From the NCBI GenBank assembly GCA_044892525.1, contig CM097886.1, positions 161,870,312 to 161,934,311 on the forward strand: DNA of 64,000 bases. The letters are read 5' to 3'. The notes under the pieces were generated by a model. The model searched no databases. It was not told the DNA's origin and was given only the letters and a program-made list of their open reading frames with translations. The first letter of the stretch is position 1, and each line of letters begins with the position of its first letter. The stretch is from Schmidtea polychroa (lineage: Eukaryota). This document shows positions 1 through 35,700 of this stretch, in pieces. A program made the translations under genes and the position numbers.

Positions 1-1976
1 CTCTATTGCTTTCGCCATTTCTCTCAGATTGTGGATATTCTCTGATGTCTTTAAGATGATGTTAGCCAATGCTACTACTTGGCGTTTTTGCTTTTTCGCT
101 CCCATTGCTAAGATATCGCCTAATTGTTTATATCTTTCTTTCTCTTCTCGTTCTCTTGCTTCTATCGCTTCCTCGCCGTCCATATCGGCATATTCACGTT
201 CCTTTTTCCTCATTGCATGAATATGTCTGGCTTCATTTTCGCTTTCCGATGTGACATCCGTCTCGCTCTCGTCATCTGATGCCTGTCCCACTGCTTCCAC
301 TTCATATTCTGGAGGTTCCTCTTCTTCTTCCTCCGATTCACTTTCTGTCTCGCCAATGTCTGTTTCTACGAAGATTCCTTTCCGGATTTCCCATTCCTTA
401 TTTTCTGCATTCCACACTCTTTCCCATGGGGTTCGTCTGCAGGATCTGGTACTTAGTTTCGTGATTTTTCCTTGTAGTTCCTTTTCTTTTAATCATCGTT
501 GGTGAATTTCAATTATTTCTATAGATTTTCGATATAACGTTTTCATCCGGTTTCGTATTTCTTTTTGATGCGTTACATCTCTTGTTCGAAATTCATCCAT
601 TGGTACTATTTTGATTATCTGATGATCGTCCCACATACCCATTTCGCTCAACGAGGTGTCGTCCTCAGCTCGTAATATTATTTTATCGTACATCATGACT
701 ACATCATCTACCATACCATCGCTACTTTCGCTACGTACCTTTTCCGTTATCTCTTGGTTTATCTTTGATACCAAATCATCCACCGTACTCTGATTGCTCA
801 TTTTTATTCGTCGTTTCTCTTCGTTCGGTAACCATATGGTTATTTCTAACTTCTGTGGCTGGGTTTCTTTTAACCTTCCATATTTGTGGATCAAATTTAT
901 GGTTCTCCAATCACTCATCCGGAGCAATTCTGTATCTCGTAATCGGCTCATTAGTTCGTATATGGCTGGGGCTCGTCTGGCTATGAGTAAATCCCAGTTA
1001 TCTTCTACTTGTTCTTGAATTTGTTTGATCAGCTTGTCCAGGTTTCGTCTCAGAGTACATTGTTTTATTTGTTCTAATTTCAATTTGATACTAAAATCAT
1101 ATTCTGCCTTGGCATCTTTAGCCCAATCGTAAAGGTTGGCTGGTTGTTTTTCTTTGTGCAACTTTAGTATTTGCGTTTCTCCTGGCCATATTAGTGCGTC
1201 TACTGTGCATATCTAGTTTGATCTGTTCTCCTTGGTATTGATACAGATATTCTTTCTTTCTCGAACTTCCCAAATGTTCTGGTATCCAATCGAAAAGTTC
1301 GTCGGTGACTGTATTTTTAATCCACATTCTTTCAAGTCCTTTACTAGTTCCGATTTTTATTACATACCGCGTGGTATCGGCCTGCTTCATTTTTTCCATA
1401 TACTTTTTTATTATCAACTTTTCCTCGCTTGGTATTAAATCTTTCTCGTTTCTTTCCAGTTTCATCACTTTTTGCACGAATCGTCTGAATGGTATTACAT
1501 CGATGAACTCTTGATTTCTCACTACTACTGGGAGTATTTCCGTTACTTGTTTTATTGCCTCTTCTTTTTCTTTTCTCAATTTTATTTCGATATCTTCGTC
1601 TTCGTTTTCGCTGGATATCTCGCTTTTACTTTCGCTTTCGTCTTTCTCGATTATTAAGTTGTAATATTTCTCCCCCCAAACTGCTCACATAGTCTTCATC
1701 TGATGACGACGTACCTTTTGTCCTCTTCATCATGTTGATTCGCAAATTTCTCATCCTTGGTACTCTCTTTAGTTTCTTATTCTCGAATATCGTTGTTTCC
1801 TCAGATTCCAGTTCTTGTAGCATTTGGTGGTTTAGCTGACTGGTTTGTTCCTTGTTTCTGTTGTTTTCCTCCTCTACTTCTGTTTTTGTTTCCTCGTGTT
1901 TCTTTTCGATTTTATCTTTTATCTATTTCCAGAATATTTTCTGAATTCTCTGTTCTCATTTCCGTTGTCGTTTCTT
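1..1976 (-). pseudogene. Post-Gag polyprotein extension: charged coiled-coil, two ubiquitin-like domains, acidic tract
   Basis: ORF pieces 1626-1823, 1118-1579 and 493-1161 join through frameshifts. After a single TGA at 493-495 the frame stays open to base 1. Ubl-like patterns at about 1160-1370 and 601-849. Confidence 0.6.
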
Positions 1977-3335
1977 TTACTTTTTCTGGTTCAGTCTTGG
2001 GTTTTTCCCGTAATTGTAACAGTACTGGCTTTTCATGTCTTTTACTAACTTCATCATATTTATTCGCAATGGTTGTTCTTGTCGTTGTTGGTTGCGTTCT
2101 TGTTTTATCCTCTCTTCCTCGGCCTGTAATCTTTGCCATTCTTGTACATGTTGGTGTACTTCATAATTGTTGAGATTTTCGGTACTCCTCATCATACGTA
2201 TATTCTGAGTTTGTTGTGGTGCTGGTTCTTGTCTTGGTCTCATCATTTGTTGCATCATCTGTTTCATTTGCGAGATTTCTTGCATAACGTTCATTTGTTT
2301 TCCTTCACTGGGGTTACTTTGTCGTTGCGGATTCGCCATGTAATTAGTGTTTCGCTGTGGTGGTCGTTGTTGTTGGCCCCTTTCTCTGCAGTCTCTGGAG
2401 ATGTGACCTGGCTGACCACAGTTAAAACAACCTCTCAATTGGCATATATTTTCCGTATGCCCACGTCGTCCGCAACGATTACAATTTGCATTTCTATAAA
2501 AATCTCTGTCCCAGTGTCCTGGTTTACCGCATGTTCGGCACTGCTTGTTATCGTTCATATTTCGTCGATTATTAAAATTGTTCCCATTATTCAGGTTGTT
2601 ACGATCGTTGTTATTCCCATTTGCTCGTCCTTGTGGTGGTTTGAAAATTTGATGCGCTCCTGGTATAAATTGGTTCATTTTCGGTTCCTGATTGCTATTA
2701 TCCCCGTTATCCGCTTTCGCTATTGCTGTCGCTATCCTCCCATCCTCTTGCATAATATTCATTTGAGCTGGAAGGTGGAGCTCGCATCTTGTAGCCCAAT
2801 CTATGGCTTCCTCTAACGTTTTACACATTTGACAACCTACTGAGGCTCTTAGCTCTTCTCGGCGTAATCCCTCTATGAAATAGCCGATCAGATTTTCCTC
2901 TGGTAATTTTCCATTCATTGCTTTCTTCGCTAATCTCCGCAATTCACTGGCATATAATGTTATCGATTCGTTCGCTCTTTGTTTCCTATTTGCTAGTTCG
3001 CCCAACGCCTGGTTGATTGGCTTACTGGCTCCGAAGGTTTTCTTCAAAAATGTTTTGATATCTTCCCACTTCTCTAATTTCGTATCTCTCTCTTTAGCTT
3101 CTAAATATACTTCTAATGCACTATCGCACAAAAACAACGGCATCCTTTTACTAATTGCTTCGGGTGTCCATCCACACACAGTGATATAAACTTCAAAATT
3201 GGTTATAAACGCTGCTAACTTGTTTGCATTTCCATTGAACGGTTCTCCTCTGAACTTCTCTTTATACTCATCGGTTTTTACGACATTCGTCATGATTGGT
3301 GTTCTAGATTCGTCTGTCTCTTTTAGATTATCCAA
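1977..3335 (-). CDS. Retrotransposon Gag (capsid-like domain plus 3 CCHC zinc knuckles)
   Basis: Capsid-like motifs FNGNANKLAAFITNFE...WEDIKTFLKKTF...RKQRANESITLYASELRRLA...FIEGL. Knuckles CRTCGKPGHWDRDF (degenerate), CNRCGRRGHTENIC, CFNCGQPGHISRDC. Frame is open upstream to 3638, and with stops to a Met at 4013. Confidence 0.85.
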   Translation of the reverse strand: MDNLKETDESRTPIMTNVVKTDEYKEKFRGEPFNGNANKLAAFITNFEVYITVCGWTPEAISKRMPLFLCDSALEVYLEAKERDTKLEKWEDIKTFLKKTFGASKPINQALGELANRKQRANESITLYASELRRLAKKAMNGKLPEENLIGYFIEGLRREELRASVGCQMCKTLEEAIDWATRCELHLPAQMNIMQEDGRIATAIAKADNGDNSNQEPKMNQFIPGAHQIFKPPQGRANGNNNDRNNLNNGNNFNNRRNMNDNKQCRTCGKPGHWDRDFYRNANCNRCGRRGHTENICQLRGCFNCGQPGHISRDCRERGQQQRPPQRNTNYMANPQRQSNPSEGKQMNVMQEISQMKQMMQQMMRPRQEPAPQQTQNIRMMRSTENLNNYEVHQHVQEWQRLQAEEERIKQERNQQRQEQPLRINMMKLVKDMKSQYCYNYGKNPRLNQKK

Positions 3336-4349
3336 TGAGGTGACTAAACTTTGGGCTGATAGTTCTTCGGTTGACGTTGCTAAACTATTAGTGATGTCGG
3401 ACAGACTTTCTCTGCTTCGAGATCGACTAGGGGTGTATCCGAGATTTTCTTGGTCAAATATGGGTATTTGATTGGTTCTTCTTGCTCCTTGTGATACTCC
3501 TCTTTGCTGTTTTATGAATCGTCCTCTTCTAAGCTGTTCTAGTTCGTCTCCTGAAAATAATACGTCTCTTGTCTTACTTGACGATCTAAGATTGGGTTTA
3601 TCCGTGATTCTTTTCTTACGCTTCTTTGTAATTAGCGGCTACTGAATTGGACGAGTTCGGTTCTGATTGTGTTTCCTTAGAAAAGTATCCTGTGTGACTC
3701 TGCTACTGAGATCTTGAGGAGATTTACGAGTCCTTGGCAGATGGCTGCTAATATTATAAGACTAATTATATCGTGGATTCGTTCGAAGATGGGGATGTTG
3801 TTGTTGTTGTCGTCTTCCGTTTCTGGAGTCTTCCGGTTACTGTATCCTTCTGTGCGGGTTCTGAATGGATTTATTCTTGGTCGATTGTCGATTTCTTCGA
3901 ACTCCTTTTGTGCAGGTTCTGGATTGTCTTGGTTGATTGTCTTGATCGGCTTTCTAAAATGAAAAAATGAGATCGTGTTGCTTCTGCTTACACGACTCCA
4001 TCATTCTTTCCATATCGTTCAAATGCAGACACCGTTTTAGGGTCTGTTTGTGCTCCCCTTTTCTCTCATATTATTATTTCCGCGGATTATAATTTCCCAT
4101 TATCCCGTAATTTTTTCGTTGATTTTAAATTATCTATATGGGGTAGTAACAATTATCTATAAAGTCGTAATAATTATCTATTCATTATCAATTATAATAT
4201 AAATAGGTCGTTGTCGGTCTCTGCTTACTACCCCCTTTCATTTTCCTAATCCTTTTGCGCCATGGTCGCTCTTTTATTTAGCTTTATCTCACTCGGTTTC
4301 CTTCTGGGACAAGAAGTTGCATTTTCCTGGTTAAAACCAAAAAAAAATC

Positions 4350-5110
4350 TGTAGAGTTTCTTTCTCTACTTCACTGGGATCCCTTTATTCAGTTAATTAT
4401 TCTCCTAATCCTTTATTCTCGATTGCTTTTTATTTTCCTTATCTTTGATTCGTTTTCTATTCTCTTCCCACTAAAGTTTACTAACATCTATTACGAGCTC
4501 GTTTATTCCTCTCTAAATTCAAATTTCCATATTTAATTTCAATTCGTTTCTAGCTAGCTTTAATATTCTATCTTACTGTAACTTTAGCTTCGATATGTTA
4601 TCTCATTGTAGCTTAACTGCTATCTCTCGCTCTTCTAGGCCTTTACGACTGGCTGGCACTATTCAACAGCTCAATCTACTTTGTCCTGACCGGCTGGACT
4701 ATTTGACAACTCGGTCTTACGACTGGCTGGCACTATTCAACAGCTCAATCTTCTTTATCCTGACCGGCTGGACTATTCGACAACTCGGTCTTACGACTGG
4801 CTGGCACTATTCAACAGCTCAATCTTCTTTATCCTGACGGGCTGGACTATTCGACAACTCGGTCTTACGACTGGCTGGCACTATTCAACAGCTCAATCTT
4901 CTTTATCCTGACCGGCTGGACTATTCGACAACTCGGCCTTAATATTTCTTACTCTGCATGCTTCTGCTTCTCTTTTTCCTCTTTTACCCTAAATTGCCAT
5001 TTCTCTCTCTCTACTTTTAATTCTGTCGACTTAATCTTTACCGCTTGAGAGTGTTTCCCCTTTCTCCCCTTGCTCAAAACGCACGACGATCGCGATGATC
5101 CATTTCTACA
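4350..5110 (-). repeat. Candidate 5' LTR (761 bp)
   Basis: 6-bp inverted termini TGTAGA/TCTACA, upstream of gag. Followed on the minus strand by GATTTTTTTTTGGTTTTAACC (T-run then TGG). No partner LTR in the window. Confidence 0.55.
4643..4938. repeat. Tandem repeat, 4 x 74 bp, each unit a dimer of related subunits
   Basis: Units start at 4643, 4717, 4791 and 4865. Subunits are actggctggcactattcaacagctc and accggctggactattcgacaactc. Confidence 0.95.
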
Positions 5111-5477: not shown

Positions 5478-5963
5478 TCATTCACCATTATAAACCATAT
5501 GGGTTTCCTTTATTTCATATTTGCACATCGTGCATCTTTTTAAGTCTTTTACGCACTCTTCACAGTGACTGAGGTGTCCACACGGCAAGAATAATACGCG
5601 AATAGGACGGAGTTTGCAGGCCATACAAGTTCGTAATTGGTTAACTTTTTCCTATATTTTTTGTTCGATTGCATTCGGTATTGTATTTAATGAATCTTTT
5701 AGACGCTGATAATCTAGATTTAATGTTGGGTGGTTCAATCTCTCTTGATACCACTGATATACGGTTTCGGGGTTTATTTTTCCATCTGGGCGACTTAGGC
5801 CTGTGGCTAATATCATATGATTAGGTACGACTGGTGTTTGTCCGATTGCTTGTAGTAATATCGTGTTGATTCTTTCTCTTTTTTGCGTCAGTGTTGTTAG
5901 GGGGTCGTTTTCTATATCGATAAACTTGAGCAATTGTTGAATTTGGTTCGCGAATTCTGTCAT
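5478..5963 (-). pseudogene. IAP-type C3HC4 RING-finger E3 ligase ORF (161 codons, one in-frame TAG at 5652-5654)
   Basis: Reading past the stop gives EKVNQLRT-CMACKLRPIRVLFLPCGHLSHCEECVKDLKRCTMC-KYEIKETHMVYNGE*. All 8 zinc ligands are present, with the C-terminal position and FxPCGH motif typical of IAP/MDM2/MGRN-type RING-HC domains. Confidence 0.85.
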
Positions 5964-6240
5964 AACTTATTACACTTCCACCTTTAACAAAATCAATGAA
6001 GAAAATCCTTACTATTGAGTTAGGCTGAATCGAAAACAATAACTAAATTTCGTCTTCAAAGTTTATCTGTGATGCTGGTTCTACGAACTCCTCTGATGTG
6101 GTCCTCGGTTAATAGTTGTATTAGTTTCTGAGTAGGTTCGGTTATCAGTTCGCTGATAGTTCTGAGTCTAATGAAAATTTTGGTTAACGGTCATATTAGA
6201 ATTGATGCTTACCTAATGAAAATTTTGGTAAACGGTAATT

Positions 6241-6293
6241 CTACTGATTTTTATGCTAGCTTATATAGCAAATTCTTATTTATGCGGACCAAT
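6241..6293 (-). promoter_or_regulatory. Putative core promoter of the RING ORF (inverted CCAAT, TATA, Inr)
   Basis: On the minus strand: ATTGG at 6293-6289, TATATAA at 6267-6261, TCAGT at about 6247-6243. If the candidate 45-bp intron 6168-6212 is spliced out, the first ATG is 5963. Confidence 0.45.
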
Positions 6294-6637
6294 CAAAATT
6301 GAGTACCGCTTATTTTATTAAATTAATTTGTTTTTTCCTATTTCTTTGGGTATTTTACTTATTTTTCCTATTTTTATTATATTTTTTATTTATTTCTTAA
6401 ATTCCTTATTATTTGTTGCGTTTTTTGATATCTTATTCATTATCTTATTACTTTACCTTTTAATTTTATCATTTTTATGTTTTGTTTTAATCTTTATATC
6501 TTATTTTATGGTTTATTTTATGCCTTGATTTATTTATTTTAGAATTTATTGTCTTATTTTATTTTATTCGTCTCCTTTCGATCTTACTTTCGACGACTGT
6601 GTTTTCGATTCAGCCCAACAGTATGGATGGGTATATG

Positions 6638-9600
6638 CAGGGCCGGCTTTAGTTGGAAGCGGTGGATGCAAAGCATCGGGGCGCCTCTCGGAAAGGGCGC
6701 TAAAAAATTTAGAATTTTAGTTTCTTTTTAATATTTAACAAAAAAACCATTAACAAATTTTTTTTTAATAAGAATTTTGTTTTTAAATAAAATTTCCTTG
6801 AAAAACTACTGGCCTACTAGTTTTCGAAGTGTTTAAGAATTGTTTAATTATTTCGCAAAACAAAATAAATTATACATGCATAAATTTATTTTGAAACGGC
6901 CTGCTATATTCGGTTTAGTTATTTCGATTAAAAAAATTAATGCTAAAAAAAATTATTTTAAAAGTCTACCAGTTCTATTCAGTTTTCAATCAGTTCAGTT
7001 GTTATTTGGTAAACTTTTTTCGCTAATAAAAGAAAAATTTAATATTAAAATTTTAATAGTAAAATAAAAAAGTGTTCAGTACAGTTTAATAGTAAAAAAG
7101 TGTTTTATTTCAGTACATTAGTTATTTTGCGGAATTGAATCATTGTACGGTGGTAGGTATTATTTAATTATTTTTATCTTTACTTCTAAAATTTATATTT
7201 TTTTAATTAAAAAAATTTTTATTAGCTTACCTATATCATAAAATATGAATTCAAAGACAAAATTATCCGGGTGTGAAAATCGAAAACGAAAGGCGAAGAG
7301 AGAGTTGGAGGAACAAAAAAATCAGGGAAGCCTTAACCAATATTTAAAAAAAGCTAATTTGACAATACCTACAATAACGTTAACGGATGATCAGATTATT
7401 CCAGAGGATAGCACAAATGGTGAAGTTAGAAATAATGCCACTAATGAGACACAATCTATAAATTTACAAACAGAAATAACATCTTCATCTAACAAAGAGC
7501 TTCAAACCATACATTTAACTGAAACTATAAGTAATAGTGCTGATTTTCATTCAATTGATCCCGCAACTTGGCCTAAATTTATTAATGATAAAATTAGAAA
7601 AATTATTATTGAGCAAGGACCAATGCAAATAAGGAAAGAAGTTTATCCCCGTGATGATGATGGACGAAGTTTTACTAATTATTATTACAATCGTAAATTA
7701 CCTAATAATGAAATTATACCAAGATCATGGTTAGTTTATTCAAGTTCAGTAAACCGTGTTTTCTGTTTTTGTTGTAAATTGTTTATAAATCAAATAGAAG
7801 GAAACCAGCATTTGATTATAAATGGTTTTAGTTGCTGGAGAAATTTGTCAAAAACACTTGCAGCTCATGAAGTTAGTACATTACATGTTAATTGTTTTTT
7901 AAAGTGGACTCAATTAAAAAAGAAAATGAACAACTTAACTACAATAGATGCTGAACTCGTAAAAGTATACGCAGTTGAAAAGAAACATTGGTACGCTGTT
8001 TTGGAGAGAATTGTCGAAATCATAAAATATCTTGCCAGACAATGCCTGTCTCTGTGTGGCTCGTCAGATACTATCTATGAAAAAAATAACGGTAACTTTT
8101 TAAAATTTGTAGAACTTTTTTCTAAATTTGACATAGTAATAGCAAATCATTTAGCAAAGATACAAAAAAAGGAGACACAAACAGTTCATTATTTAGGCAA
8201 AACTATACAAAATGAAATAATATCGTTGATCTCTTCGAAAATTTTGCAAAATATTTTTCAAATGATAATTAATGCCAAATATTTTTCTCTAATATTAGAT
8301 TGCACTCCTGATATTAGTCATAACGAACAAATAACATTTATAGCCAGATTTGTCAATAAAGATGAAAATAATGAAGTTGCAATAAGCGAACATTTTTTGG
8401 GATTTTTAAAAGTATCTGACTCCACAGGAAAAGGTTTAGCAACTTATCTTATTGACAACATTAAAGATTTAGGTTTGAATATTAATGATCTACGTGGACA
8501 AGGTTACGATAATGGCGCAAATATGCATGGGAAAAATAATGGGGTTCAAAAACGTATTTTAAATTTGAATTCTCGTGCATTTTTCGTCCCATGTGCTGCA
8601 CATACACTTAATTTAGTAGTGAATGATGCAGCCAAAATTAACACAGAATCATTTAGTTTCTTTTCCACTATTCAAACAATTTATAATTTCTTTAGCGCTT
8701 CAACAAAACGATGGGAGTTCTTAAAAAAAATACTAAAATTACAGTAAAACCTTTGTCAGCCACCAGGTGGGAATCAAGAGTCGATGCCCTTCGTCCACTT
8801 AGGTTTGAAATAGCTGAAATTTTAGATGCTTTAGTTGACATTTATGAAAACCTAGAAATAGATAATAATACAAAGCATGAAGCTAAGGCTGTGGCTTTCA
8901 AAATAAAAGAGTATGAATTTATATGTTCAGTGGTTATTTGGTACGATGTTTTAAGTAAAGTTAACGTTGTTAGTAAACTGCTCCAAAATCCAAATCAAAA
9001 CTTAAATGTTTCTTCAGTTGCGTTAAATAGTCTTATTAAATTTATTGAAGAATATAGATCCGATGAAAATTTTAGTCTTATTCTTCAAACGGCAGAAAAT
9101 ATAGCAGCTGATTTAGAAATACCTGCGAAATTCAAAGATAATACGTTACGAAGAAGAAAGAAAAAAATTTTTGGTTATGAATCTGTAGACGAAACGCCAG
9201 TTGATCCGATACTTAAATATAAAATATCATTTTTTCTGCCAATTTTAGATATTACTATCAATTCTTTAAAAGAAAGGTTTAATCTTTTCACAAAATATAG
9301 TGAAAAATTTGAATTTATACATAATATAAAAGAAATTAACAAAATGGATGATAATACATTAAAAAAACATTGTTCTGATTTAGAAATAATGCTAACCGAT
9401 GGCGAGAAAAAAGATATATCTGCAACAGAATTATTTAATGAAATAAAAATAGCAAAGGAATTTTTGAAAGACTTTGAAAACCCACTAAACATCTTGCAAT
9501 ATATATATATATATAAATCTACTGGATTCCATTTTTCCCAATTTTGTAATTGCTATTAAAATATTTTTAACTTTACCAGTTTCAGTTGCTAGCGGAGAAC

Positions 9601-15050: not shown

Positions 15051-15751
15051 TGTTATGATTGTAGGTTTCGGTGGTATTATATTCTATATGTTATATTCTA
15101 TTATATTCTATGTATTCTATATGTGTTATAAATAGACTATATTATATTTGTGTTGGTAAGTGTGTGCGTGTGTGTGAGGAAATCTAGAGAGCCCGATAGA
15201 GTCACCGTTAAAAATGTGGCGGGACAATCGGAGTGCATGTTGTGTAGAGATTTTTGACAATGAGATCACAAAAATAATATTAAAGTAATATGATAATGAA
15301 TTGACAAAAGTAATATTAAAATAAAATTAATAGAACAAACCAACAAACAATTATAATTCCAACTTTTATTTAAAGAAAAAAATTCAAAAACCTTAGACAT
15401 GGTACGAAATTAGAATGTCAAACTTTTCAATTTCGGCGAATTTACTTTTATAAATCTGTTCAAAAATATTCTTTTCTACTTGGGGGAAATTTCCAATGAT
15501 TGATATCAAATTTCAGAATATTGTATAATAAATTTCTTTTGATTGTGGAATTGTGATAAGCTTTTAACTTTCAGTTTTATTATTGATTTTTTTATTTGTG
15601 TTCGATATTTGTATAGCGATAATTTACCATAGTAAATTATCGCTATATAGTCCCTTTATTCCTTTTTCAAGCGCGACATACGCTCAATGAAATAGCAAGA
15701 CGTCGCGTAACCTCGTTTGAAAAGAAATAAAATATATAACTATACATTACA
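15051..15751 (-). mobile_element. Solo LTR (family A, copy 2)
   Basis: On the minus strand TGTAATG...CATAACA. Perfect 5-bp TSD CAAGC at 15046-15050 and 15752-15756. Confidence 0.85.
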
Positions 15752-15759
15752 CAAGCCTT

Positions 15760-16494
15760 TCATCTAACCTTGTTTCTCTTGCGCAAACAAAAATACGGCT
15801 ACCAAAGGTTTACAGGCCCAGATGCTGCCGTTGAAATGATAGATTAATGTATTAGAAGGTACTTGGTTTACCCCAGCACAAAAGAAAGAAACGCAGAAAA
15901 ATCTATTTCGGAGTAAACATTACCTGGATAGCTTAATTGAAGAAAGTCGGTCACAACGTCTCCTTGCAAAGTGCAGTCGGAAGCTCTTCACAAAGTGTAC
16001 GTCCAGGTGACGGTGAAGAAGAATATTGTAAACATTCCAATGGCTGAAGAAGACAATGTTTTCCCCATTTACCATAGTCGATCAAATGTCATTCATCGAT
16101 CCACAAAAAAGTCCTGTCAAGGGTGTGTAGAGTTCGATTTTTCGCCTACCACCTCCAAAGTTGTCTTCACGGGCACTAGTAGGGTGAAGCGCAAGGCTAC
16201 CCAACCACCTACTGTATCCAATACTTCGGTACAATGGATAAAGCCCATGCGCCGGCAATTATCGGTAGCGCTTTACTTTTCCATAATTTAGATTTAACCA
16301 CATAACTGAGATTGTCATTTAGAGGAAAATGGATACAGTTAGGGATGGTATTCGTCGGGCGATGATCCGGCGTCTTTTAGCATAAAGATTTTTTAATTCG
16401 GGTTGAGAATTTTATTATTGTCACATCAACTACGTCGGTATTGAACTTATGATAATAAAATGAAGTCAATGATCAAAACCTCACAATAGTGGAA
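15760..16494 (-). mobile_element. Possible DIRS-like (tyrosine recombinase) retroelement relic, interrupted by the gypsy at 16500
   Basis: Degenerate frames resemble the DIRS methyltransferase-like region and YR N-terminus (CIHFP...KLWKSKALPIIAGAW; DVVTDFLQLSYPGNVYSEIDFSAFLS). No catalytic RHRY motif seen. Confidence 0.3.
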
Positions 16495-16499
16495 GCTAC

Positions 16500-16915
16500 T
16501 GTAGTGCCTCTGACTAGCACTTTTATCAATTTAATAATTGAACTAAAAAATTATTATTAAATTAATTAAATTAAAATTAAATTAAAAACGATTGTTTAAA
16601 TAATCCTGTCTTTTTCTAAAAGAAATCATCAAATTCAATATAGAAAAAAACAATGAATTATTTAACTTCGCAATCATCAAATCGAGTCAAAATCATTAAA
16701 TCAAATATGCCAGAAATTCAAGAAACAGAGACCTTAGTCTTATTAGCAATGATCTCTCTGATGATAGTTAATATCTTCAACAATCTCCATACAATCTCCA
16801 GATCAAGTGTTCGTGCTTTCGTCGTAATATTGACTAATGGCGAAGATATGACAATCATTTACTTCAATGTTAATTTGAATAAATTCTTTATTCGAATTAA
16901 TTGTATGTCTATACA
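16500..16915 (+). repeat. 5' LTR
   Basis: TGTAGT...TATACA, near-identical to 21277-21662. Confidence 0.95.
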
Positions 16916-16917
16916 AT

Positions 16918-16932
16918 TGGTGTCAGAAGTGA
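16918..16932 (+). promoter_or_regulatory. Primer binding site, tRNA-Leu type
   Basis: TGGTGTCAGAAGTG two bases after the LTR, complementary to the 3' end of eukaryotic tRNA-Leu. Confidence 0.8.
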
Positions 16933-17129
16933 CAAAAGTAAATGTTCTTCTTTCCTTAAAAACAGTAAAAATTGCATGTATAATTTTCAGATTTTTTAAG
17001 ACATTTTAATTTATTAAATTTATATATAATATATTAAAAATATTCAATTATTATGTTGCTATATTTTTTTTCACCAATCTCCCAAACCCAAAAACCCAAC
17101 TTTAATTAATAAGAAAACGCGCAACATTA

Positions 17130-20100
17130 TTGTCCGTCACAACAACATCTTGTTCCAAGTCCGCGTAACCCAAAATTTATGAAAGACCTATCGAAACATT
17201 TTGTAATGGACGAAAACGAGTTTTTTTACCTTAAATAACGGAGTCCCCATCGTCGACCCTTTTTCAATCTCGGAACAATCAATAGTCACACATTTTTTCA
17301 GTACAAGAGTTTGTGCCAAAACAAACATCGAACATCACTTATCTACCCCGATCGGTCGAACCCAATTAATATTTTTTGACTCAGATTGCACCCCATCATC
17401 TTGGTTCCGCAATTTTGAGTCGCGCACAAATGCCAACACCAAATCAAGACAAGACTCCTTGTTAGACGCGAAACCTGACGAATTAATGTCAGAATTAGGT
17501 TCTCAAATTTCTGACGCATTAGACTCCGTAAACCCTTACGAGTCCATCAAAACAGCGATACATAAGAAATACTCATCCACAAACACTTCATCAATAGAGA
17601 AACTATCAAAACCTATTCCATAACAGGCCCAGCACCATCATCATTTTTATCCCAACTCGTACGAGAACTAGAAAATGCTCATACCGGTCTATCTAAAGAA
17701 CACTGCTATCCTATTCCACTATTTTTTAACAGCGCTCCTACATCACGTCCAAACCTCCCAACTCGTCGTCGATTCAGTGGATACTATCCACCTGTCAAAA
17801 TCTCTGATAAACTGATCACCAGACCACCTATTCGTAACACAACCACCTCCATTTCATCTGTCTCCGACCCCTTACTTGAAGAACAGATATCCTACTTGAC
17901 AAAAGCTGTCACCACGTTAACTAACCCCCCTCGACAAATTCCATACTCCCAAAGAACTGACAGGTCGAACTCTTTTCCACCTCTGACTTGTTTTTTACAC
18001 AAAAAAGTTTTCATCGGACGCTAGAACATGTCACATAGGATGTTCTTGGCCAAACCCCCGTTAACCTTAAGAGTTATTCCCATATGCACTTACCACAACC
18101 TCTTCGGGTTACATGCACAGAAATGCCTTCCAGGCTGTACTTTTGAGAATCGTCACTCAAAAAAACCACAATACAATAAAACTACTCCAATAACCCCCAA
18201 AAGAAAAAACTAACTTCTCTTTCTAACTAACTCAAAACTAACTCAACTTTCACTCACAATTTCCACATAACAGACACAATTCATCCAATACTAGACTCCG
18301 ATTTCCTCAGCGAACAATCCCTCATGATAGACTGCAAAAATCGACGACTATTCACTATAAACAGACATCTCAATCCTATATCCACAAATATATCACCAAA
18401 CAGAACAACAATCTCTACACAGACATCTCCAACGACCCAACTCAGATTTATCCAATCTACTGACACAATAGAACGCAATAAACACATGTCAGATATCCAA
18501 CACTCACCTAATTCAGAGCCAATGCACGACATAAAAGAGACAATCTCAACCACATACCCAAACCTCATCACAAAATGCCCTATCATACCACCTACAACTC
18601 CATCGACTCATTATATTCCGACATTACCGTGCATACCACAACACAACCGAGCCAAACCCCTCCCACCCATCAAACTCGACGCAGTTAAAGCCGAATTCAC
18701 CAGTTTAGAAAATGCAGGCATTATACGCCGTTCTTCATCTTCATGGGCGTCGCCAATACAGATCACCAAGAAAGACGATTCATTCAGGCGTTGGGGCAAC
18801 TACCGTCAATTCAATCAAATGACTGTTCACGATGCATACACAATGTCACTTATCAAAGATTTAATAACCCGCTTTTCACAATCCACCATATTTTCAACTA
18901 TTGACCTTTCGAAAGCCTACCATTAGTTTCCTGTACATATCGATGACGTTCCCAAAACCGATGTAACCACACTATTTGGAAATTTCGAATACATTTACAT
19001 GCCTTTCGGCCTAAGGAATGCAGCTCAGTCTTTAGAACACTTCATGGACACAATTTTCCGGGAAGTCCACCACGCTTTTGCATACCTAGACGATATATTC
19101 AAATCATTACCCGACCGTGACACCCACAATAAAGACCTACACACTGTTCTTGACATATTGAACCGTTATAACTTACAGATCAATGTAAATAAATGCGATT
19201 TCTATCAAAAACGCGTAAGATTTCTTTGTCACATACTCTCATCTACGGGTTGCGAACCTTTTCCTGAATAACTTGACATAATCTGCAGCTTTCCATTACC
19301 CGCCACTGTAACACAATTACGTAGCTTTTTGGGCATTCTCAATTTCGGCATAGATTTATAAAAAACGCATCACACATAATGGCACCTCTTTCAACATTGA
19401 AAAAAGGAAAGAAAAACTCCACCAGTAACTGGTCCGAAACAACACGTGACGTATTCAACACAGTCAAAGACGCTCTATCCAAGATTACAACTCTTCACTA
19501 CCGGAGTCATGACCTCCCATTTACCCTCACAACAGATGCATCAAATATCGCCGCCGGCGCAGTCCTTCATCAAATTAAGAGCAATGTTTCACTCCCAATA
19601 GAATTTTTCTCTAGAAAATTTTCATCGGCGAAGTCAGAGTACAGTGCATTCGACAGAGAATTACTTGCTATTTTTCTAGCTGTTAAGCATTTTGGTCACA
19701 TTTTAGAATTTAGACAATTCACAGTCTAAACTGATCACAAACCTCTTATCCACTGCCTCACCATGAAAGACCCATCAAACAGGGTACATCGTCAGATAAC
19801 ATACCTATCATCTTTCGACATTAAGTTCGCCCATATATCCGGTAAAGATAATGTAATCGCTGACTATCTTTCCAGAAACATTTCAGCATCTATCTCATCA
19901 ACCCCAGTAATTACTCAAAATGTTCTCCGTTCAACCCCACCGACATCAGAAGATTTCGTCCATTTCAAAGACTCGCTACAGACAATAGACGGCATACATT
20001 ATGAAACAATGTATAAAAACATCCTCAGACCAATCCTACAGTCTTCGCTTCGGAAAAAAGCATTTCTCGCCATTCACAACTTGCACCACCCAGGAATTAA

Positions 20101-21100
20101 GTCCACATACCATCTCCTACGCCAAAAGGTCACATGGTTTTCATTATTCAAAGATGTAAAAATGTGGATCTCTGAATGTGAGGGCTGCCCAGCAACACAA
20201 AATGAACCGACACACTAAACAACCAATCACTCCTTTCCAAACGGGTTCGAGATTCGACACACTTCACATTGACCTAGTCAGTAAACTACCAGCAGTCGAC
20301 GGATTTTGTTACGTCCTGACAATGATTGATCGGAAAACACGATGGTTTGAGGCTGTTCCTGTCCGTGACATCACCACTCACACGGTTGCACAAATTTTAG
20401 TATCCACCTGGTTTTCACGTTATGGAATTCCAACCTCTAGCATCACTGACCAAGGTGCACAATTCGAATCGGATCTTTTTTAACATCTTACATCCAGCCT
20501 CGGCATAAAACATTTAAGAACCAGCTCTTACCATCCGCAAACAAACGGTCTCGTCGAACGCGCTCATCGGACTTTGAAAGCATCTCTCAGAATACTCTAA
20601 ACTTCAACTTCATGGGTCAAAGAGTTACCATTTGTTTTACTTGGATGGCACAGTACACCCAATCGTTCAAGCGGCGTGTCTCCTTCACAACCTTTGTTTG
20701 GATCTAACACTTTCATGTTCAATGAACTTATCGATCTTTACAAGGACTCACCATTAGACAAGATCAATCTAAGACGCAAGCATTTTTTGAGCTTAAGTAC
20801 TAATCCATCGTTCACATATTCCACGTCGTACAAGCCATATATACCACAGTCCCTTTCCTCAGCAACTTACGCATGGATGAGAACTATCGACTCATCAAAC
20901 TTCAAACCAGATATAAAGGTCCGTTTCGCAACATATAGCTGTACAAAAACAAGTAAAACTCGATATTGACAACAACCAAGTCATGATCAACCTTTCCAGA
21001 TTAAAACCAGCCTTTTGCACCCCTGAATACGACGAAATCCCAAACAACCATATCACAAAAGACTTGAACATAAACGGAGACATATTAGAAGACAACAACC
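17130..21100 (+). pseudogene. gag-pol pseudogene (RT, RNase H, integrase)
   Basis: SSSWASPI, GNYRQFN, FSTIDLSKAYH*, MPFGLRNAAQ, AYLDDI (RT). LTTDASN, YSAFDRELLAI, TDHKPL (RNase H). HNLHHPG...CEGC (IN zinc finger). HIDLV, ITDQGAQFES, YHPQTNGLVER (IN core). Many stops and frameshifts. Confidence 0.95.
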
Positions 21101-21276
21101 GACAACACTACCAGACACATCAAATGTTCAACTCCTCCAAAACAATCCACCATTCCCCTCCAGGCGAACACGTAAACTCCCTCAATACTTCTCGGATTAT
21201 GATCTTCAGTGACTGCTTCCACCATTATCGACGTCTTTGTCTTTTGATACGCTCTGCATACTTCGACGGGGGCTAT

Positions 21277-21662
21277 TGTAGTGCCTCTGACTAGCACTTT
21301 TATCAATTTAATAATTAAACTAAAAAATTATTATTAAATTAATTAAATTAAAATTAAATTAAAAACGATTGTTTAAATAATCCTGTCTTTTTCTAAAAGA
21401 AATCATCAAATTCAATATAGAAAGAAACAATGAATTATTTAACTTCGCAATCATCAAATCGAGTCAAAATCATTAAATCATATATGCCAGAAATTCAAGA
21501 AACAGAGACCTTAGTCTTATTAGCAATGATCTCTCTGATTATAGTTAATATCTTCAACAATCTCCATACAATCTCCAGATCAAGTGTTCGCGCTTTCGTC
21601 GTAATATTGACTAATGTTAATTTGAATAAATTCCCTATTCGAAATAATTGTATGTCTCTAAA
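21277..21662 (+). repeat. 3' LTR
   Basis: Copy of the 5' LTR with about 10 substitutions and a 30-bp deletion. Confidence 0.95.
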
Positions 21663-25721: not shown

Positions 25722-28700
25722 GTTTCTAATTTTGTCCTATTCAATCTGGAATGTTTAATTTTGCTTCGGCTTTCTTTAAAATTCATTTCTTACGTTAGTT
25801 ATTGGTCATAAATCTGATTTAAATAAACTATAAAATAAAAATATAATTTATTATAATCTTGCTTCTATTCGATTATCTTTGTTTTCAACCCAACTTTAAT
25901 AAACATTAGATTTCAGAAACGTATTAACTGGTAACCGGGTTATAATCGGAATGGTATTTCCTAACGAAATGTTTGCTATTTTGACTTTCTAATTAACCGT
26001 TGTTTTAATGATTAAATATAATAGAAAGTAACAAAAGGTCTTTTTTAAACAATTTTTACTTGGTTTTAGGATGAACAGGATTCAGTACGCTTACTTGGTA
26101 TTGGCGCATGTGTCAGTTTTTGTAAAATACTTCCTAAAGATGATATAAAATCTTCTATTATCTCTTTAATTAGAGGAGGAGCAGAAGATAAATCTTGGAG
26201 GGTTCGTCATGCCGTGGCTGAAAATATATTAGAAATTGAAAAATTATCAATTGGTGATGTAACTCAAAGTGGTTTAGTTGATATCTATACGGTTACTAAC
26301 TTTACTAAAATATGTCGGCTATATTTGCAAGTTTTAGGTACTTTTAAAGGATTCTGAAGCTGAAGTAAAATCAGCAGCTGTGGGGAAATTAAAAGATTTC
26401 TGTGAAACACTTCTAAAGGATTCAAAAGAGTCAGTTACTGTGAAATCGTTTCTTCCTATTGTCAAAGAAATGATAAATGATCCAAATATTCAAGTTAAAA
26501 TAAGTCTTGCTGGTGTCTTAATGGGATTGTCACCGATCATTGGAAAAGCGAACACCACTGAACACCTCTTGCCAATTTTCCTTACCCAATTAAAAGATGA
26601 GAACGCTGAGGTAATAATAATAAGACAAAATAAAGAAATATTATTGGCTAGAAAACGACCAATCAACAATATTTTGAACACTTTAATGGCCACGCCCAAT
26701 TTATTACAATTCATATACTTTAAAACCCACACAAATATGCGCATATTTACGCTTAGTATCGATTTATTAGTTTGGGGAGTTTTGAAAGTCGGCCAATAGA
26801 ATGCTATATTATGTTGGTCAATAGTCGTTTGTGTGCGATAATAATTTGCACGGTGACGTAGGAATGGCTATTAAGGTGCATAAGATAACTATAAATGTGC
26901 TTCATAGTTTCATCAGATGTAAATCTAAGTTATTCTAATTATTCTTAGGAATTTTATTGATTTTATCTATCAATGGTTAAATGAAAATTATAAATTTTGT
27001 TTATTCAATAAATATGTGCAAAACTATTTCATAAATAGTTGACTGGTGATGGGAGCTATTATCAGGTTGAAGGTTTGTAAGCTATATTTGAAAATATGGA
27101 TTTGTATGAAATGATAACATATTATTATTATTATAGTTTGTATGTATTGAAATCACCATATGGTTTTTATCTATATTTTGCTCATTTTAGGTTCCCTAAT
27201 TGGAAATATCTCTTAACTCGATGAAATTCTTTACGAATTTCAATTTCGAAAAGAGTAATAAGTGTGGATTAACAGGTTTGACACCCATTGTATTCCTGTA
27301 TACGCGTTATCTTTTCTCTAAGACAGGGGTGGGCAAACCTTTTCTATAAAGGGCCACATAGATAACTTGATTGTTATCTGGGGCCGCATATATATTTTGT
27401 CTACTACTTTACTTTAGTTACAATTTTTACAACTTATGAAAATATGAATTGATGAGAATAGTCATGTATTTGTCAGTTTATTTCACATTCCCACTCTATT
27501 ACAAATGCACATTACATTTTCAAATAGGAACTAAACGAATTGCTAATTTGGGAATAAGATTTTACTATTCATAATTATTCCAACAAAAGTTTATTGTTAC
27601 ACATCATAATAATTATGAAGACAAAGAAACTTAATTTACATACAAGCCGACCACAATGTACAAATATAATTAATGAGAAGTATGTAACTGTTCACAATTT
27701 TGAATAATTTTCTTGAACTGTGGACATGTACATGCATACGGGCCGTAGTTTGCCCACCCCTGCTCTAAGAGTGTGTTGATATCTGATCTTATTGTTTCAA
27801 ATGAGTTGGTAAATTAAACAAAATGTCCGTTTGCGACGAGAGTTTCTAGTGGTTGTTAGTAGATGTAGTAACTAAGGTTTTTTTAGTTTACAAAGCGAAG
27901 AAAATGGTGAGTGTACGGGACACGTTACTATAGAGTCGTTCAATTCTTATAGAATATAGGTCTGTGTCAAGCGGGAGTGCACGGGACACGTTACTATAGA
28001 ATCGTTCAATTCTTATAGAATATAGGTCTGTGTCAAGGCGGAATGCACGGGACACGTTACTATTGAGTCGTTCAATTCTTCTGGTAAAACGGGAGTGCAC
28101 TGCACCAGAGCGCTGGCAGGAGGGAAATAGTTTAATGAAGAAATATTAATTATCCAATCTGTATTACGTTTATAATGGTAGAAACATACTTTTTATTAAC
28201 TAAATAGGTAAAACTCGTAAGTATATTATATAGTATATTATATACGTCATTCATAACATTTCTAGTGTTGCTCCTAAAAATATTAAATGTTGATTAATAT
28301 TATTATACGTTAAATATTAAATTTAAACTAAAATAATTTTAGGTTATTAGGATATATAAAGTTTTACCTATCTTACCTGTATTATTGATTTTGAGGAATA
28401 ATATTCTCGACTTTTGGATGACATATTGTAAATTATACTCATTAATAGCACACAATTGTTGGAATTTATAATTAGAGTTCACAAGTCGACATATTTTCAG
28501 AAAAAATTTTATTTGAGTTTGGAAAAATTTTAAAAATGATTTTATACAAAAATAAATTTCCGTCTCCTTTCTTTTGTAAGTACGAATGGTAAAACTCTAC
28601 TCATTTCAGACATAAGCCCTCGAAAACTAAGTCATCAATAAAATTTAAAGTCCATTAAATAAAGCAGAGCTTTCCAACCGGTGTGTCGCGACACTTAAGT

Positions 28701-32749: not shown

Positions 32750-35700
32750 CTCAATTAGTTATAGGGTTTTCCGACCTATTTAGACACTTTAACGATCAAA
32801 TTAGACATTTCAAAAAAGTGATATATATTTCACAATCAATTTAGACAATTTTCCAATCAATTTAGACAATAAGTTTGGCAAATCCACAACATTTTTATTC
32901 ATATATCAATTCCATATTTCTACTTCTTTCGATATAAGTTAACATTCTCCTGAAATACCCTCCACAATCTTCACTTGTTAGGATGTCAAATCCTGCCATA
33001 ATCAAATCATTTAATTCATTTTCGTTGTTTACATTACCTCTGAGCACATGATTCTTCCATTTACTGAAACAAGTCTCAATAATGTTAAGAAATGGAGAGT
33101 AGGGGGGTAGATATACAACTTTGATGTTTTCAGCTTCACATATGGAAATAAAACGAGCACAATGATGTATACGAGCGTTGTCGATGATAACAATTGGATC
33201 TGTAATTCCTTTGTTTATCGATAAATTGTTTAACTCTACCATATAACTCAAAAATTTCTCCCCGTTTATAGGTCCTGGATTTATTTCATACTTTAGAGTT
33301 CCATACTTTGATACTGCTGCAATAACGGAAATGTTGCGAGATCTTGTCGCCGGTGTATTTACAATGACACTTGTACCAACTAAACTCCTCCCCCGTTTGA
33401 CTCTTGTGCAAACCTGGAACCCAACTTCATCCACAAATACAAATGCTTTATCATCATTATTTAAAAGCATACTTAAAAATCTCTCAGCGTAGATACGTCT
33501 CTTCTCCAATGTCGTAGGATCGTTTCTCTTAACCGGTGAAAGTGTTACGCATTTCAAAGTATAATGGAAATTGCGTAAACAACGATCAATGGTGGGGATA
33601 GATACATTTTTCCCAATATTATTTATCGTCATCTCAACCAAGTTTTTCAGTGTCAGAATTGGGTTTTCATCAACCCATTCTTTAATAGTTTGTTTTTCAC
33701 TCGGAGTCAATTTCGATCTTTTATCGCCGCCCCTTTTCAGTGGTGTTATTCTTCCTTCAGATTCCCACCTTTTTACGATATTATATACACTTGTTCTTTT
33801 AATTGCGACCATTTCAGATATGCTGGAAATCGTAATGTTCTGAGAATAAAGCGAAATCACACGCTCTCTTGCGTGCTGGTCAATTGTATCATACTTTTTT
33901 ACATGCGAATCTACACTGACAGTCGTTTCCAATTCAACAGAGGCATTATTTGATTCGTCCCTCACATCATTCACCCCCGGGGATGATGGCTCGTTTGTGT
34001 CAATAACGTTATTGTTTATGTGCCGGTCATTTACGTCATTTACCGCTGTTTCTTCGTTATTATTCATGGGTATCAAATGCAGAGGGAATGTAGACATATT
34101 TTAAATTGTTTAATAAGTATTCTTTAATTGATTGTCTAAATTGATTGGAAAATTGTCTAAATTGATTGTGAAATATATATCACTTTTTTGAAATGTCTAA
34201 TTTGATCGTTAAAGTGTCTAAATAGGTCGGAAAACCCTATATTTAAATATCTCTAATATCTCCTTGTTTAAAAGGTTTTGGCCAATCAACGTTGCGAATT
34301 ATCATTTTTCCATCTCTGCTTCGTAATTCATAACTGTTTGCATGGATCTTTCTAACAACGACAAAAATTCCTGTATATCGATCTTCTTTTTTCCCTCACA
34401 TCTACTTTAACTAAAACTTCTTCATTTATATCGAATTCTCGGTGTATCCGGTTCTTATTTTTATAATTTAAATTTTTTTTGTTTTGATTGCACTTCCTCA
34501 ACTATTTTACTTCTATCGTTGTATATTCTTTTATTATGATTCCATATCCGTAAACCAAATACTGCTTCTGAGTGACTTTTTCCAATTGTACTTAGAATTT
34601 TTCTGGCAACTTATTGGCTGCATTTTCATCTTTAAATTATAATTTTTTGAATACCCCTTGTAATTTTTTTTCAATGATTGTTAAAAATATGAATTCAAAA
34701 TTTATATATTCATCTAAATGCGATAGTATATAAAATTTAAACTTTAGAAAGTAAAAAACTACATAATTTTTTGTTTAGGGGTGCCATGAAAAAACTCGAT
34801 TTTTTGGTGTTTAGTGGGCTAGAAAAGGTTGGGAATCACTGATTTAGAATATAAATTAATTTTAACAAAGGATGTTTAAAAATCAAATCTAGGATGTTAT
34901 AAAACTAGGACCCTGGACGTGATTTTGTTGAGTCTGATAAGTTTAATAAATTAAATAGTGTGAGTAAGGTTGATTATCCTAAATTTGTGTTGGTATTGCC
35001 GTAATCAGAAGGTTTTAAGGATTAAAAAAGGAAGATAAGAAAGCAGTTATATAATTTGTTTATTAATAAGTCTAGAACTCCGGTAGGACTATGTTCTGAT
35101 CTAGTTTTACAGTATACACCAAACACCACTGAGATACGTTTCCTATAATATTAAAAACTGCACACAAGCAAAACATACACTAAAAAACACATACAAACTT
35201 TCGATTCATAGAAATGCACCGCTGAGATACGTTTCTATAATAACTTTATTTTAGACAATTTTGAGAAAAAAATAATGGCAAAAAAAATTTTAAATATATT
35301 TTTAATGAAAATATCAAAAGCAGATGGATTTAATTCAATGTTTTTTCAATCTAGATTTGATTTCCTGAAAGAAGCCCCTTATATTGAGCTCAGAAAAAAA
35401 ATTACAAAAATTAAAAAATATATTTTTTTTATACTCGTCGATTTTTCCAAAAATGTTTTAGAAAAATACATATTTTTGGTGATTGATTTATTTATTTAAT
35501 TATAATTAAAAATATATTTTATTCACATTATATCGAAACAATTCCAAAATACTTAAAAATAAATGTCATAAAATTCCTAAAAAAACCCTGAAAATTAATT
35601 AAAAATAATTTATAATAGAAATGTTGATAAAAAAGTAATATTTAATCCTTTCCTGTCTGAATTAAGAGTTGAAAATGGCGTCCTAAAATCACTTGTTGCT

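Follow-up and report, generated by a model that had tools for sequence, protein, structure and literature searches.

Introduction

Burro/GYPSM1 elements of planarians are gypsy-like LTR retroelements of more than 30 kb in which a Gag with CCHC knuckles heads a huge polyprotein, env lies between gag and protease, and a PR-RT-RH-IN order is accompanied by ankyrins, TRAF/MATH cargo and tandem repeats (PMC6431247). The cargo of Burro concerns apoptosis and ubiquitin, and meddling with those host systems has already been suggested (PMC6431247). The B-IAP of Burro1, an element-borne RING of the IAP class, is reported by Lee et al. 2026 (PMC13465017) to support planarian stem cells. General background is given by PMC8532177, PMC11410931 and PMC13238120.

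Here we describe a further RING gene of such elements, found in a stretch of 64,000 nt of Schmidtea polychroa DNA (hereafter the window). We conclude, with a probability of about 0.95, that a giant Burro-like LTR retroelement, which bears env, carries this RING ORF as a conserved accessory gene at its 5' end, ~340 nt inside the 5' LTR and before a tandem array and gag, and that the copy in the window is dead and internally deleted. It represents a second, separately acquired RING gene of Burro-like elements, with a fixed pre-gag position and under purifying selection in two families. PMC6431247 makes no mention of a stand-alone RING ORF before gag, and a literature search returned no description of a BIR-less pre-gag RING ORF in Burro, although one may be annotated in Lee 2026 or Grohme 2018 or in the supplements to these papers.

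The RING ORF in the window

On the minus strand of the window, an ORF of 161 codons (5478..5963) runs from an ATG at 5963 to a terminal stop at 5480-5478 and encodes a helical N-terminal domain followed by a C-terminal RING. It is broken by a premature in-frame TAG at codon 104 (5652..5654, minus strand), before the RING. An initial annotation of this DNA had proposed that the frame continues past the TAG into a complete C-terminal RING, and both the translation and a Pfam scan bear this out: the C3HC4 RING is complete from its first Cys at 5627 to its last Cys at 5523, and matches zf-C3HC4_3 (PF13920) with E=3e-12 (46.6 bits, cut-off 27). Together with a dimer-type C-terminal tail carrying an invariant Tyr, this RING-HC occupies 5481..5627 (minus strand), as judged from Pfam, PDB matches, folds and column counts. 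The same annotation saw no BIR domain; the Pfam scan found none in the ORF, and the predicted model is all-helical before the RING. Its label 'IAP-type' is right for the class of the RING alone, given that a BIR is missing and that IDOL and BIRC7 tie as top folds; without a BIR, the 5' RING gene is no IAP. The N-terminal 110 aa, taken to be novel, proved so with respect to Pfam (the first 104 aa match no family) and the ESM Atlas, but have homologues in a sister element family and in one library protein. The A-rich composition said to be common to the ORF and the element is real, with a coding-strand A content of 0.40 in the RING ORF and 0.40 in gag, versus 0.35 in window 22001-64000.

Copies in the genome and anatomy of the element

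A DNA search of the species' own genome (781 Mb), in which the best 40 of 196 candidates were scored, returned copies at 96-100% identity. Among 29 further copies examined, 28 have an open frame that matches the RING pattern; the frame of the remaining copy is open as well and carries a His-to-Tyr change. In a protein search, all of the best 150 of 3,599 candidates cover residues 1-161 at 71-100% identity; 41 of these 150 are identical to the query, 144 are stop-free and six contain stops, the window copy being one of the six. Because the scored copies are the best scorers, this intact share is biased upwards. Twenty diverged copies were then picked by hand from the stop-free rows of the 150, spanning 71-88% identity. 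An LTR-borne ORF lies upstream in 20/20 of them, and gag downstream in 18/20. The suggestion that the RING gene is retroelement cargo is therefore strongly supported by at least 150 full-length copies and by this linkage in the diverged ones; the gene is neither single-copy nor separated from the LTR family, and copies that lack the TAG are the rule among those scored.

To define the layout of an intact element, one copy was mapped within 50 kb of sequence. This element measures 30,545 bp, with LTRs identical over 4,160 nt. Its RING ORF starts ~340 nt past the 5' LTR; next come the 74-bp array, two long ORFs (1,790 and 2,941 codons) and four 3' ORFs, giving the order LTR, RING ORF, array, gag, env, PR, RT, RH, IN, ankyrin, TRAF. 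Pfam matches comprise Retrotrans_gag, zf-CCHC, Monjiviricetes_fusion (1.4e-61), RVP, RVT_1, RT_RNaseH, rve and Ank_2, with env (a viral fusion protein) preceding the protease. A separate 3' ORF of 478 codons (L037:7399-8832) is a complete TRAF-like ORF that encodes a RING, zinc fingers and MATH (6.9e-27). A Pfam scan of nine ORF stretches of the mapped copy revealed no BIR, and a BIR-RING query matched only the 5' RING there. SUMO-like, BCL2-like and dUTPase-like domains, which PMC6431247 detected by profile-profile search, gave no Pfam match at E<=0.05.

The size, the CCHC-knuckle Gag at the head of a huge polyprotein, the position of env, the PR-RT-RH-IN order, the ankyrins, the TRAF/MATH cargo and the tandem repeats thus all agree with Burro/GYPSM1 (PMC6431247). 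Unlike Burro/GYPSM1, the studied family has no BIR gene, and its MATH is found solely in the separate 3' TRAF ORF. The element is Burro-like, as set against the named Burro1-4 by description; on account of the missing BIR and of MATH lying outside the polyprotein, we file it as Burro-like and not as Burro1. The 5' RING gene is hence present even in a family without a BIR gene.

The window copy and its LTR remnant

The window copy could be delimited by a 4-bp target-site duplication on its 5' side (6621..6624, minus strand), matched by four identical bases after the end of its 3' LTR, 9,948 nt to the left of position 1; a second element copy likewise has a 4-bp target-site duplication. Between these bounds lie the first 636 nt of the 5' LTR (5985..6620, minus strand; 97% to LTR starts elsewhere), the RING ORF, the 74-bp tandem array (4569..4938), whose copy number varies among elements, a truncated gag with capsid and CCHC knuckles that heads the giant polyprotein (1977..3638, minus strand; Pfam Retrotrans_gag 2e-10, zf-CCHC 2e-10), and broken polyprotein pieces (1..1684, minus strand). 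The element runs on for 9.9 kb to the left of the window, with internal deletions. Both gag and pol contain additional stops, frameshifts and deletions, and the insertion, as shortened by deletions, totals 16.6 kb. Since one 4-bp duplication surrounds both ends, the LTR remnant, RING ORF and gag form a single insertion and not tandem copies. The initial annotation placed the RING gene adjacent to and co-oriented with the retroelement: the shared strand is correct, but the gene sits within the same insertion as the window gag. Its further proposal, that the gene may be 3' cargo of another element copy lying upstream or in tandem, is contradicted by the mapped copy and by the target duplication; the gene is instead a 5' (pre-gag) gene of the same insertion.

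Several signals in the LTR remnant had been read as belonging to the RING gene. A promoter-like module identified by pattern (6261..6293, minus strand) combines an inverted CCAAT (6289-6293) with TATATAA (6267-6261), and CCAAT and TATA with the same spacing were found by pattern search in 11/20 diverged copies. About 55 nt past the TATA is a candidate splice donor, AG/GTAAG (6208..6214, minus strand; first intron base 6212), and a donor-like motif occurs within 5 kb upstream of the ATG in 16/20 diverged copies, mostly at 3.6-4.1 kb. The proposed but unproven 45-nt intron (6168..6212, minus strand) coincides with a direct repeat of 45-nt period in this LTR subfamily. By pattern, the repeat acceptor of the 45-nt piece is present in the window and its closest copy, with a similar repeat in one further copy, and was not found in the 20 diverged copies. 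The sole ATG between the TATA and 5963, at 6194, falls inside the proposed 45-nt piece.

Comparison with other copies explains this arrangement. Intact LTRs of the family are 3.8-4.2 kb long, and the distance from LTR start to ATG is 4,083 nt in the closest other copy versus ~658 nt in the window. The junction lies at 5973..5984 (minus strand), where 12 nt are absent from the closest copy and the alignments end at 5985 and 5972. About 3.4 kb, containing the remaining LTR, the primer-binding site, the leader and the splice acceptor, has been deleted, and from this difference in spacing the promoter-intron-ATG arrangement of the window follows as a deletion product. An upstream TATA exists, and ATG 5963 is the first start once the 45 bp are removed, as the initial annotation stated, but TATA and donor are parts of the LTR, within 5985-6620. 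We rejected a promoter of its own with a 45-bp intron as a chimera of LTR parts made by deletion. An independent gene with that promoter and intron, in the role of 3' accessory gene to a neighbouring upstream or tandem element, is accordingly very improbable. TATA, donor and an ATG-free path do exist in the window; however, they sit in an LTR remnant from which 3.4 kb is missing, LTR remnant, RING and gag all lie between the two sides of a single target duplication, and the neighbour upstream is a hAT-type transposase and not a second element copy. Any transcript of the fused form in the window would still run into the premature TAG ahead of the RING.

Taken together, the 5' RING is a real cargo gene of the retroelement, and it is the promoter of a dead copy that was earlier misread. 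The premature TAG and the ~3.4-kb deletion leave the window RING copy dead. Its LTR remnant matches the 3' LTR of its own insertion at 96.3% over 433 nt, making this pair older than the identical pair of the mapped 30,545-bp copy; in all, the window copy is an ordinary dead insertion.

Probable expression from the LTR

In all close (29/29) and diverged (20/20) copies, a YAG is found at positions -5 to -3 of the ATG, where the window has AAG; the native acceptor thus lies 2 nt ahead of the ATG in 49/49 copies and is lost in the window. Under a strict acceptor rule that includes a pyrimidine tract, 17/20 ORF starts pass, versus 26 of 3,542 ATGs in total, those 17 included. In intact copies, the LTR promoter would drive the RING gene through a short non-coding first exon, with the LTR donor, ~55 nt past the TATA, joined across ~3.7 kb to the acceptor 2 nt before the ATG. 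Judging by these motifs, we consider it probable that the RING gene of intact copies is expressed from the LTR promoter by this splice. Plant Ogre retrotransposons also have an extra ORF upstream of gag that is reached by splicing; we know of no RING cargo and no env in them. Ogre and the studied element are also alike in having long LTRs and additional ORFs whose function is unknown (PMC6431247).

Other features of the LTRs were observed. Each family LTR holds a 257-codon ORF without a Pfam family (for example L035:8355-9125), with an acceptor-like sequence before it. This ORF, which is the one upstream of the RING ORF in 20/20 diverged copies, is a candidate second spliced accessory gene. 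The first 20 nt of the LTR recur in inverted orientation ~600 nt inside it (window 6018-6037 and 6601-6620, 95%), the two framing the promoter region. Common to both families is a primer-binding-site-like motif only a few bases inside the 5' LTR (L134:785-830; L113-L129 leaders); it was found by pattern in 13/20 diverged copies, and may correspond to a proline-tRNA site, which it resembles. Five near-identical partial LTR starts (query 17-475) lie within 0.8 Mb at G000:C4:43072114-43895098, a cluster that suggests a large tandem repeat.

A sister family and the origin of the gene

To identify relatives, a protein library of 1.84 billion representatives was searched. The best match, P0001 (160 aa), aligns over its full length at 28% identity and is encoded in the same genome, where at least 150 copies exist. 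It belongs to a sister family, in which the P0001 ORF is placed before gag, 723 nt inside the LTR and ~19.5 kb upstream of a 392-aa BIR+RING ORF, which is located in the 3' region and is also present in at least 150 copies in the genome. The RT-RNase H of the two families is 87% identical; the 3' TRAF of the sister family is 29% identical to that of the studied family, and a second MATH is within its polyprotein. The Burro1 traits, a BIR gene and MATH in the main polyprotein, are thus found in the sister family. Its B-IAP-like ORF has a BIR, a 3' position and canonical RING residues, whereas the studied gene is 5' of gag and has no BIR, and the family that carries this ORF has its own separate 5' homologue of the studied gene. 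Because the BIR-bearing family carries both genes, the 5' RING bears on how B-IAP results are read.

We then asked how the two kinds of RING gene are related. Compared without its RING, the studied gene scores in its N-terminal region z 11.6 against the sister ORF and z 7.2 against P0021, a predicted library protein in which a homologous N-terminal domain and a partial RING are joined to a Gag; this Gag is 54-57% identical to its best matches in the genome, from which P0021 itself does not come. Against the BIR-RING ORF, the N-terminal region shows no similarity (z 0.0), and the identity of the 5' RING gene to that ORF is 31% over 84 aa around the RING. In a RING tree of 51 rows and 62 columns, in which 27 of 48 inner branches are open, the BIR-RING ORF is placed with three RING exons of the host (L160-L162, known as RING exons only) with support of 99/98. 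A branch with the four 5' RINGs on one side is present in 100% of 200 bootstrap trees, its branch support of 75/93 being weak, and the 62-column tree resolves no donor family for them. From the N-terminal z of 0.0 and the separation in the tree, it follows that the 5' gene was acquired separately and is not a cut-down B-IAP; a truncated B-IAP or degenerate UBA-RING was rejected on these grounds.

Sequence matches among solved structures are best to cIAP RINGs (cIAP2, 2e-10, and cIAP1), as would be expected if the element had merely landed next to a host IAP pseudogene unrelated to it. That the ORF is such a pseudogene is nonetheless as good as excluded by its copy number (at least 150), its fixed position in the element, purifying selection and the absence of a BIR, and the RING tree shows no grouping with host RING exons.

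Other candidate relatives gave little. BIR is present in 25 of the 83 library matches that were scanned, among 150 listed. For a viral origin via P0055 and P0019, which are of similar size with a terminal RING, N-terminal z values were 1.8 and 0.5, and no locus in viral contigs was confirmed. P0126 reached an N-terminal z of 5.5; as a kinase-RING protein, it was taken as a chance match and set aside. A word-index protein search returned nothing for the RING ORF and only two near relatives for P0001, while the ESM Atlas yielded no usable match for either N-terminal domain, a result that implies neither absence nor novelty.

Selection and RING residues

For 22 copies, mean dS is 0.83 and mean dN 0.095, giving a dN/dS of 0.11 by pairwise counts, the pairs not being independent. 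By part, dN/dS is 0.11 for the N-terminal region and 0.09 for the RING and tail; the capsid (16 of the 22 copies) gives 0.03. These values indicate that the entire ORF, and not the RING alone, is maintained as protein.

The predicted model shows four helices, a long helix at 79-110 and the RING. The best of five models has a mean pLDDT of 89, the other four having 80, 69, 65 and 58; as P0055, P0019 and P0152 make up three of the 15 rows in the fold alignment, confidence in the N-terminal part is to be read with care. The top fold matches are tied between IDOL (Z 8.9, 1.1 Å, 63 aa) and BIRC7 (Z 8.8, 0.9 Å, 57 aa). No informative fold match was obtained for the N-terminal bundle, compared as part of the full model (Z <=5.0), and viral matches cover the RING only. 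As a predicted model, the product resembles cIAP1/2, BIRC7, XIAP, IDOL/MYLIP and MDM2/MDMX in its C-terminal RING-HC, pre-RING helix and aromatic tail, with an rmsd of 0.8-1.2 Å. It differs from these dimeric C-terminal RING ligases in having no BIR, FERM or p53-binding domain, in its unrelated helical N-terminus and in the small residue at the main E2 contact.

Residues of known function were compared with those of cIAP1, in which, according to PMC6349121, V573 and M575 contact the E2, R606 is the linchpin and F616 is the tail residue needed in trans. The seven zinc-binding Cys are kept in 22/22 copies and the His in 21/22, and the F616-equivalent is Tyr in 22/22. At the linchpin, 17 copies have Lys, three Arg and two Thr (basic in 20/22). 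The V573-equivalent is Ala in 11 copies and Ser in the other 11, and the M575-equivalent is mostly Lys. Among RINGs of the library, Ala or Ser at the V573 site occurs in 8/211, versus V, I, L or M in 180/211, and in 0/34 RINGs of BIR-bearing matches. Lys is the second commonest linchpin (47/211 library RINGs). The loop-2 Pro is absent here; as only 107/211 library RINGs have it, this says little. The sister homologue has Ile at the V573 site with an Asp linchpin, and the B-IAP-like ORF of the sister family is canonical at both.

Possible modes of action

PMC6465955 describes MDMX as a RING protein that does not bind E2 and acts via its tail, and a Lys in place of the linchpin Arg as defective in MDM2. 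With this precedent, the conserved tail Tyr and the Ala or Ser at the V573 site lead us to prefer an MDMX-like mechanism, in which a tail-donating partner retargets a complete RING ligase; we put this at somewhat below even odds. The 161-aa product would then be a helical bundle with a dimer-type RING that by itself binds E2 poorly; its pre-RING helix and the Tyr tail at its C terminus would allow it to pair with a RING that is catalytically complete. As the studied family has no BIR gene, the RING partner must come from the host or from another family, and might be an IAP-class ligase of the host or the sister family's B-IAP. Pairing could redirect or tune the partner ligase, with the N-terminal bundle picking the target, so that the host cell is kept alive or a restriction factor kept down while the element replicates. 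If the product does pair with host ligases, this would be a new route by which a retroelement steers host ubiquitination. Some points weigh against the MDMX-like mechanism. The residue rules come from human cIAP1 and MDM2 with UBE2D, and another E2 might accept a small residue; the Lys linchpin is common in library RINGs, and XIAP is active despite a non-basic linchpin, as stated in PMC12326332.

The product might instead act as an autonomous homodimeric E3 ligase, its helical N-terminus recruiting a host death, immunity or silencing factor and its E2 being one other than UBE2D. Purifying selection has kept all zinc ligands, the His, the tail Tyr and a linchpin that is basic in most copies, the predicted model superposes on cIAP1-UbcH5B-Ub at 0.8 Å and on IDOL at ~1 Å, and large DNA viruses have BIR-less RING proteins of similar size. 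The small V573-equivalent of every copy, rare among relatives, and the acidic linchpin of the sister homologue argue against such activity, which we consider possible yet doubtful. Of the alternatives, this one is the closest to the function first proposed for the gene, the ubiquitination of host death or silencing factors.

A zinc-binding scaffold outside ubiquitin transfer, acting for example when particles assemble or as a leader that splicing joins to Gag, appears improbable. The fusion to Gag in P0021 and the degenerate E2-facing residues are consistent with such a role; however, P0021 is a predicted protein, the ubiquitin-contacting tail Tyr is invariant, and the ORF has its own stop right after a tail of conserved length in 20/20 diverged copies.

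The MDMX-like reading can be extended to the history of the gene. The BIR-less, E2-impaired RING might be a core accessory gene that Burro-like elements have had since their ancestor, predating the captured B-IAP and independent of it, kept before gag across families whose genes are 28% identical, LTR-spliced, and acting as an MDMX-like pseudo-ligase that hijacks host IAP-class ligases. Taken as a whole, this scenario seems to us rather unlikely.

Other features of the window

No tRNA genes were detected in the 64,000-nt window. A hAT-type DNA transposon remnant (6638-9559, plus strand) begins 14 nt from the 5' end of the retroelement and encodes a hAT-type transposase in two frames (7242-8747 and 8696-9559; DUF4371, 4e-19); its far end was not found by exact pattern. 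At 15732-16270 (plus strand) lies a broken remnant of an LTR-borne ORF from a distant subfamily, with 47-52% identity and one stop. A separate gypsy element of ~5 kb occupies 16495-21660, with LTRs that are 90-98% alike and a broken pol. A MITE-like feature at 32755-34246 has 121-nt inverted arms that are 97% complementary and 1,250 nt apart, and three tandem copies of 66 nt each are found at 27909-28106.
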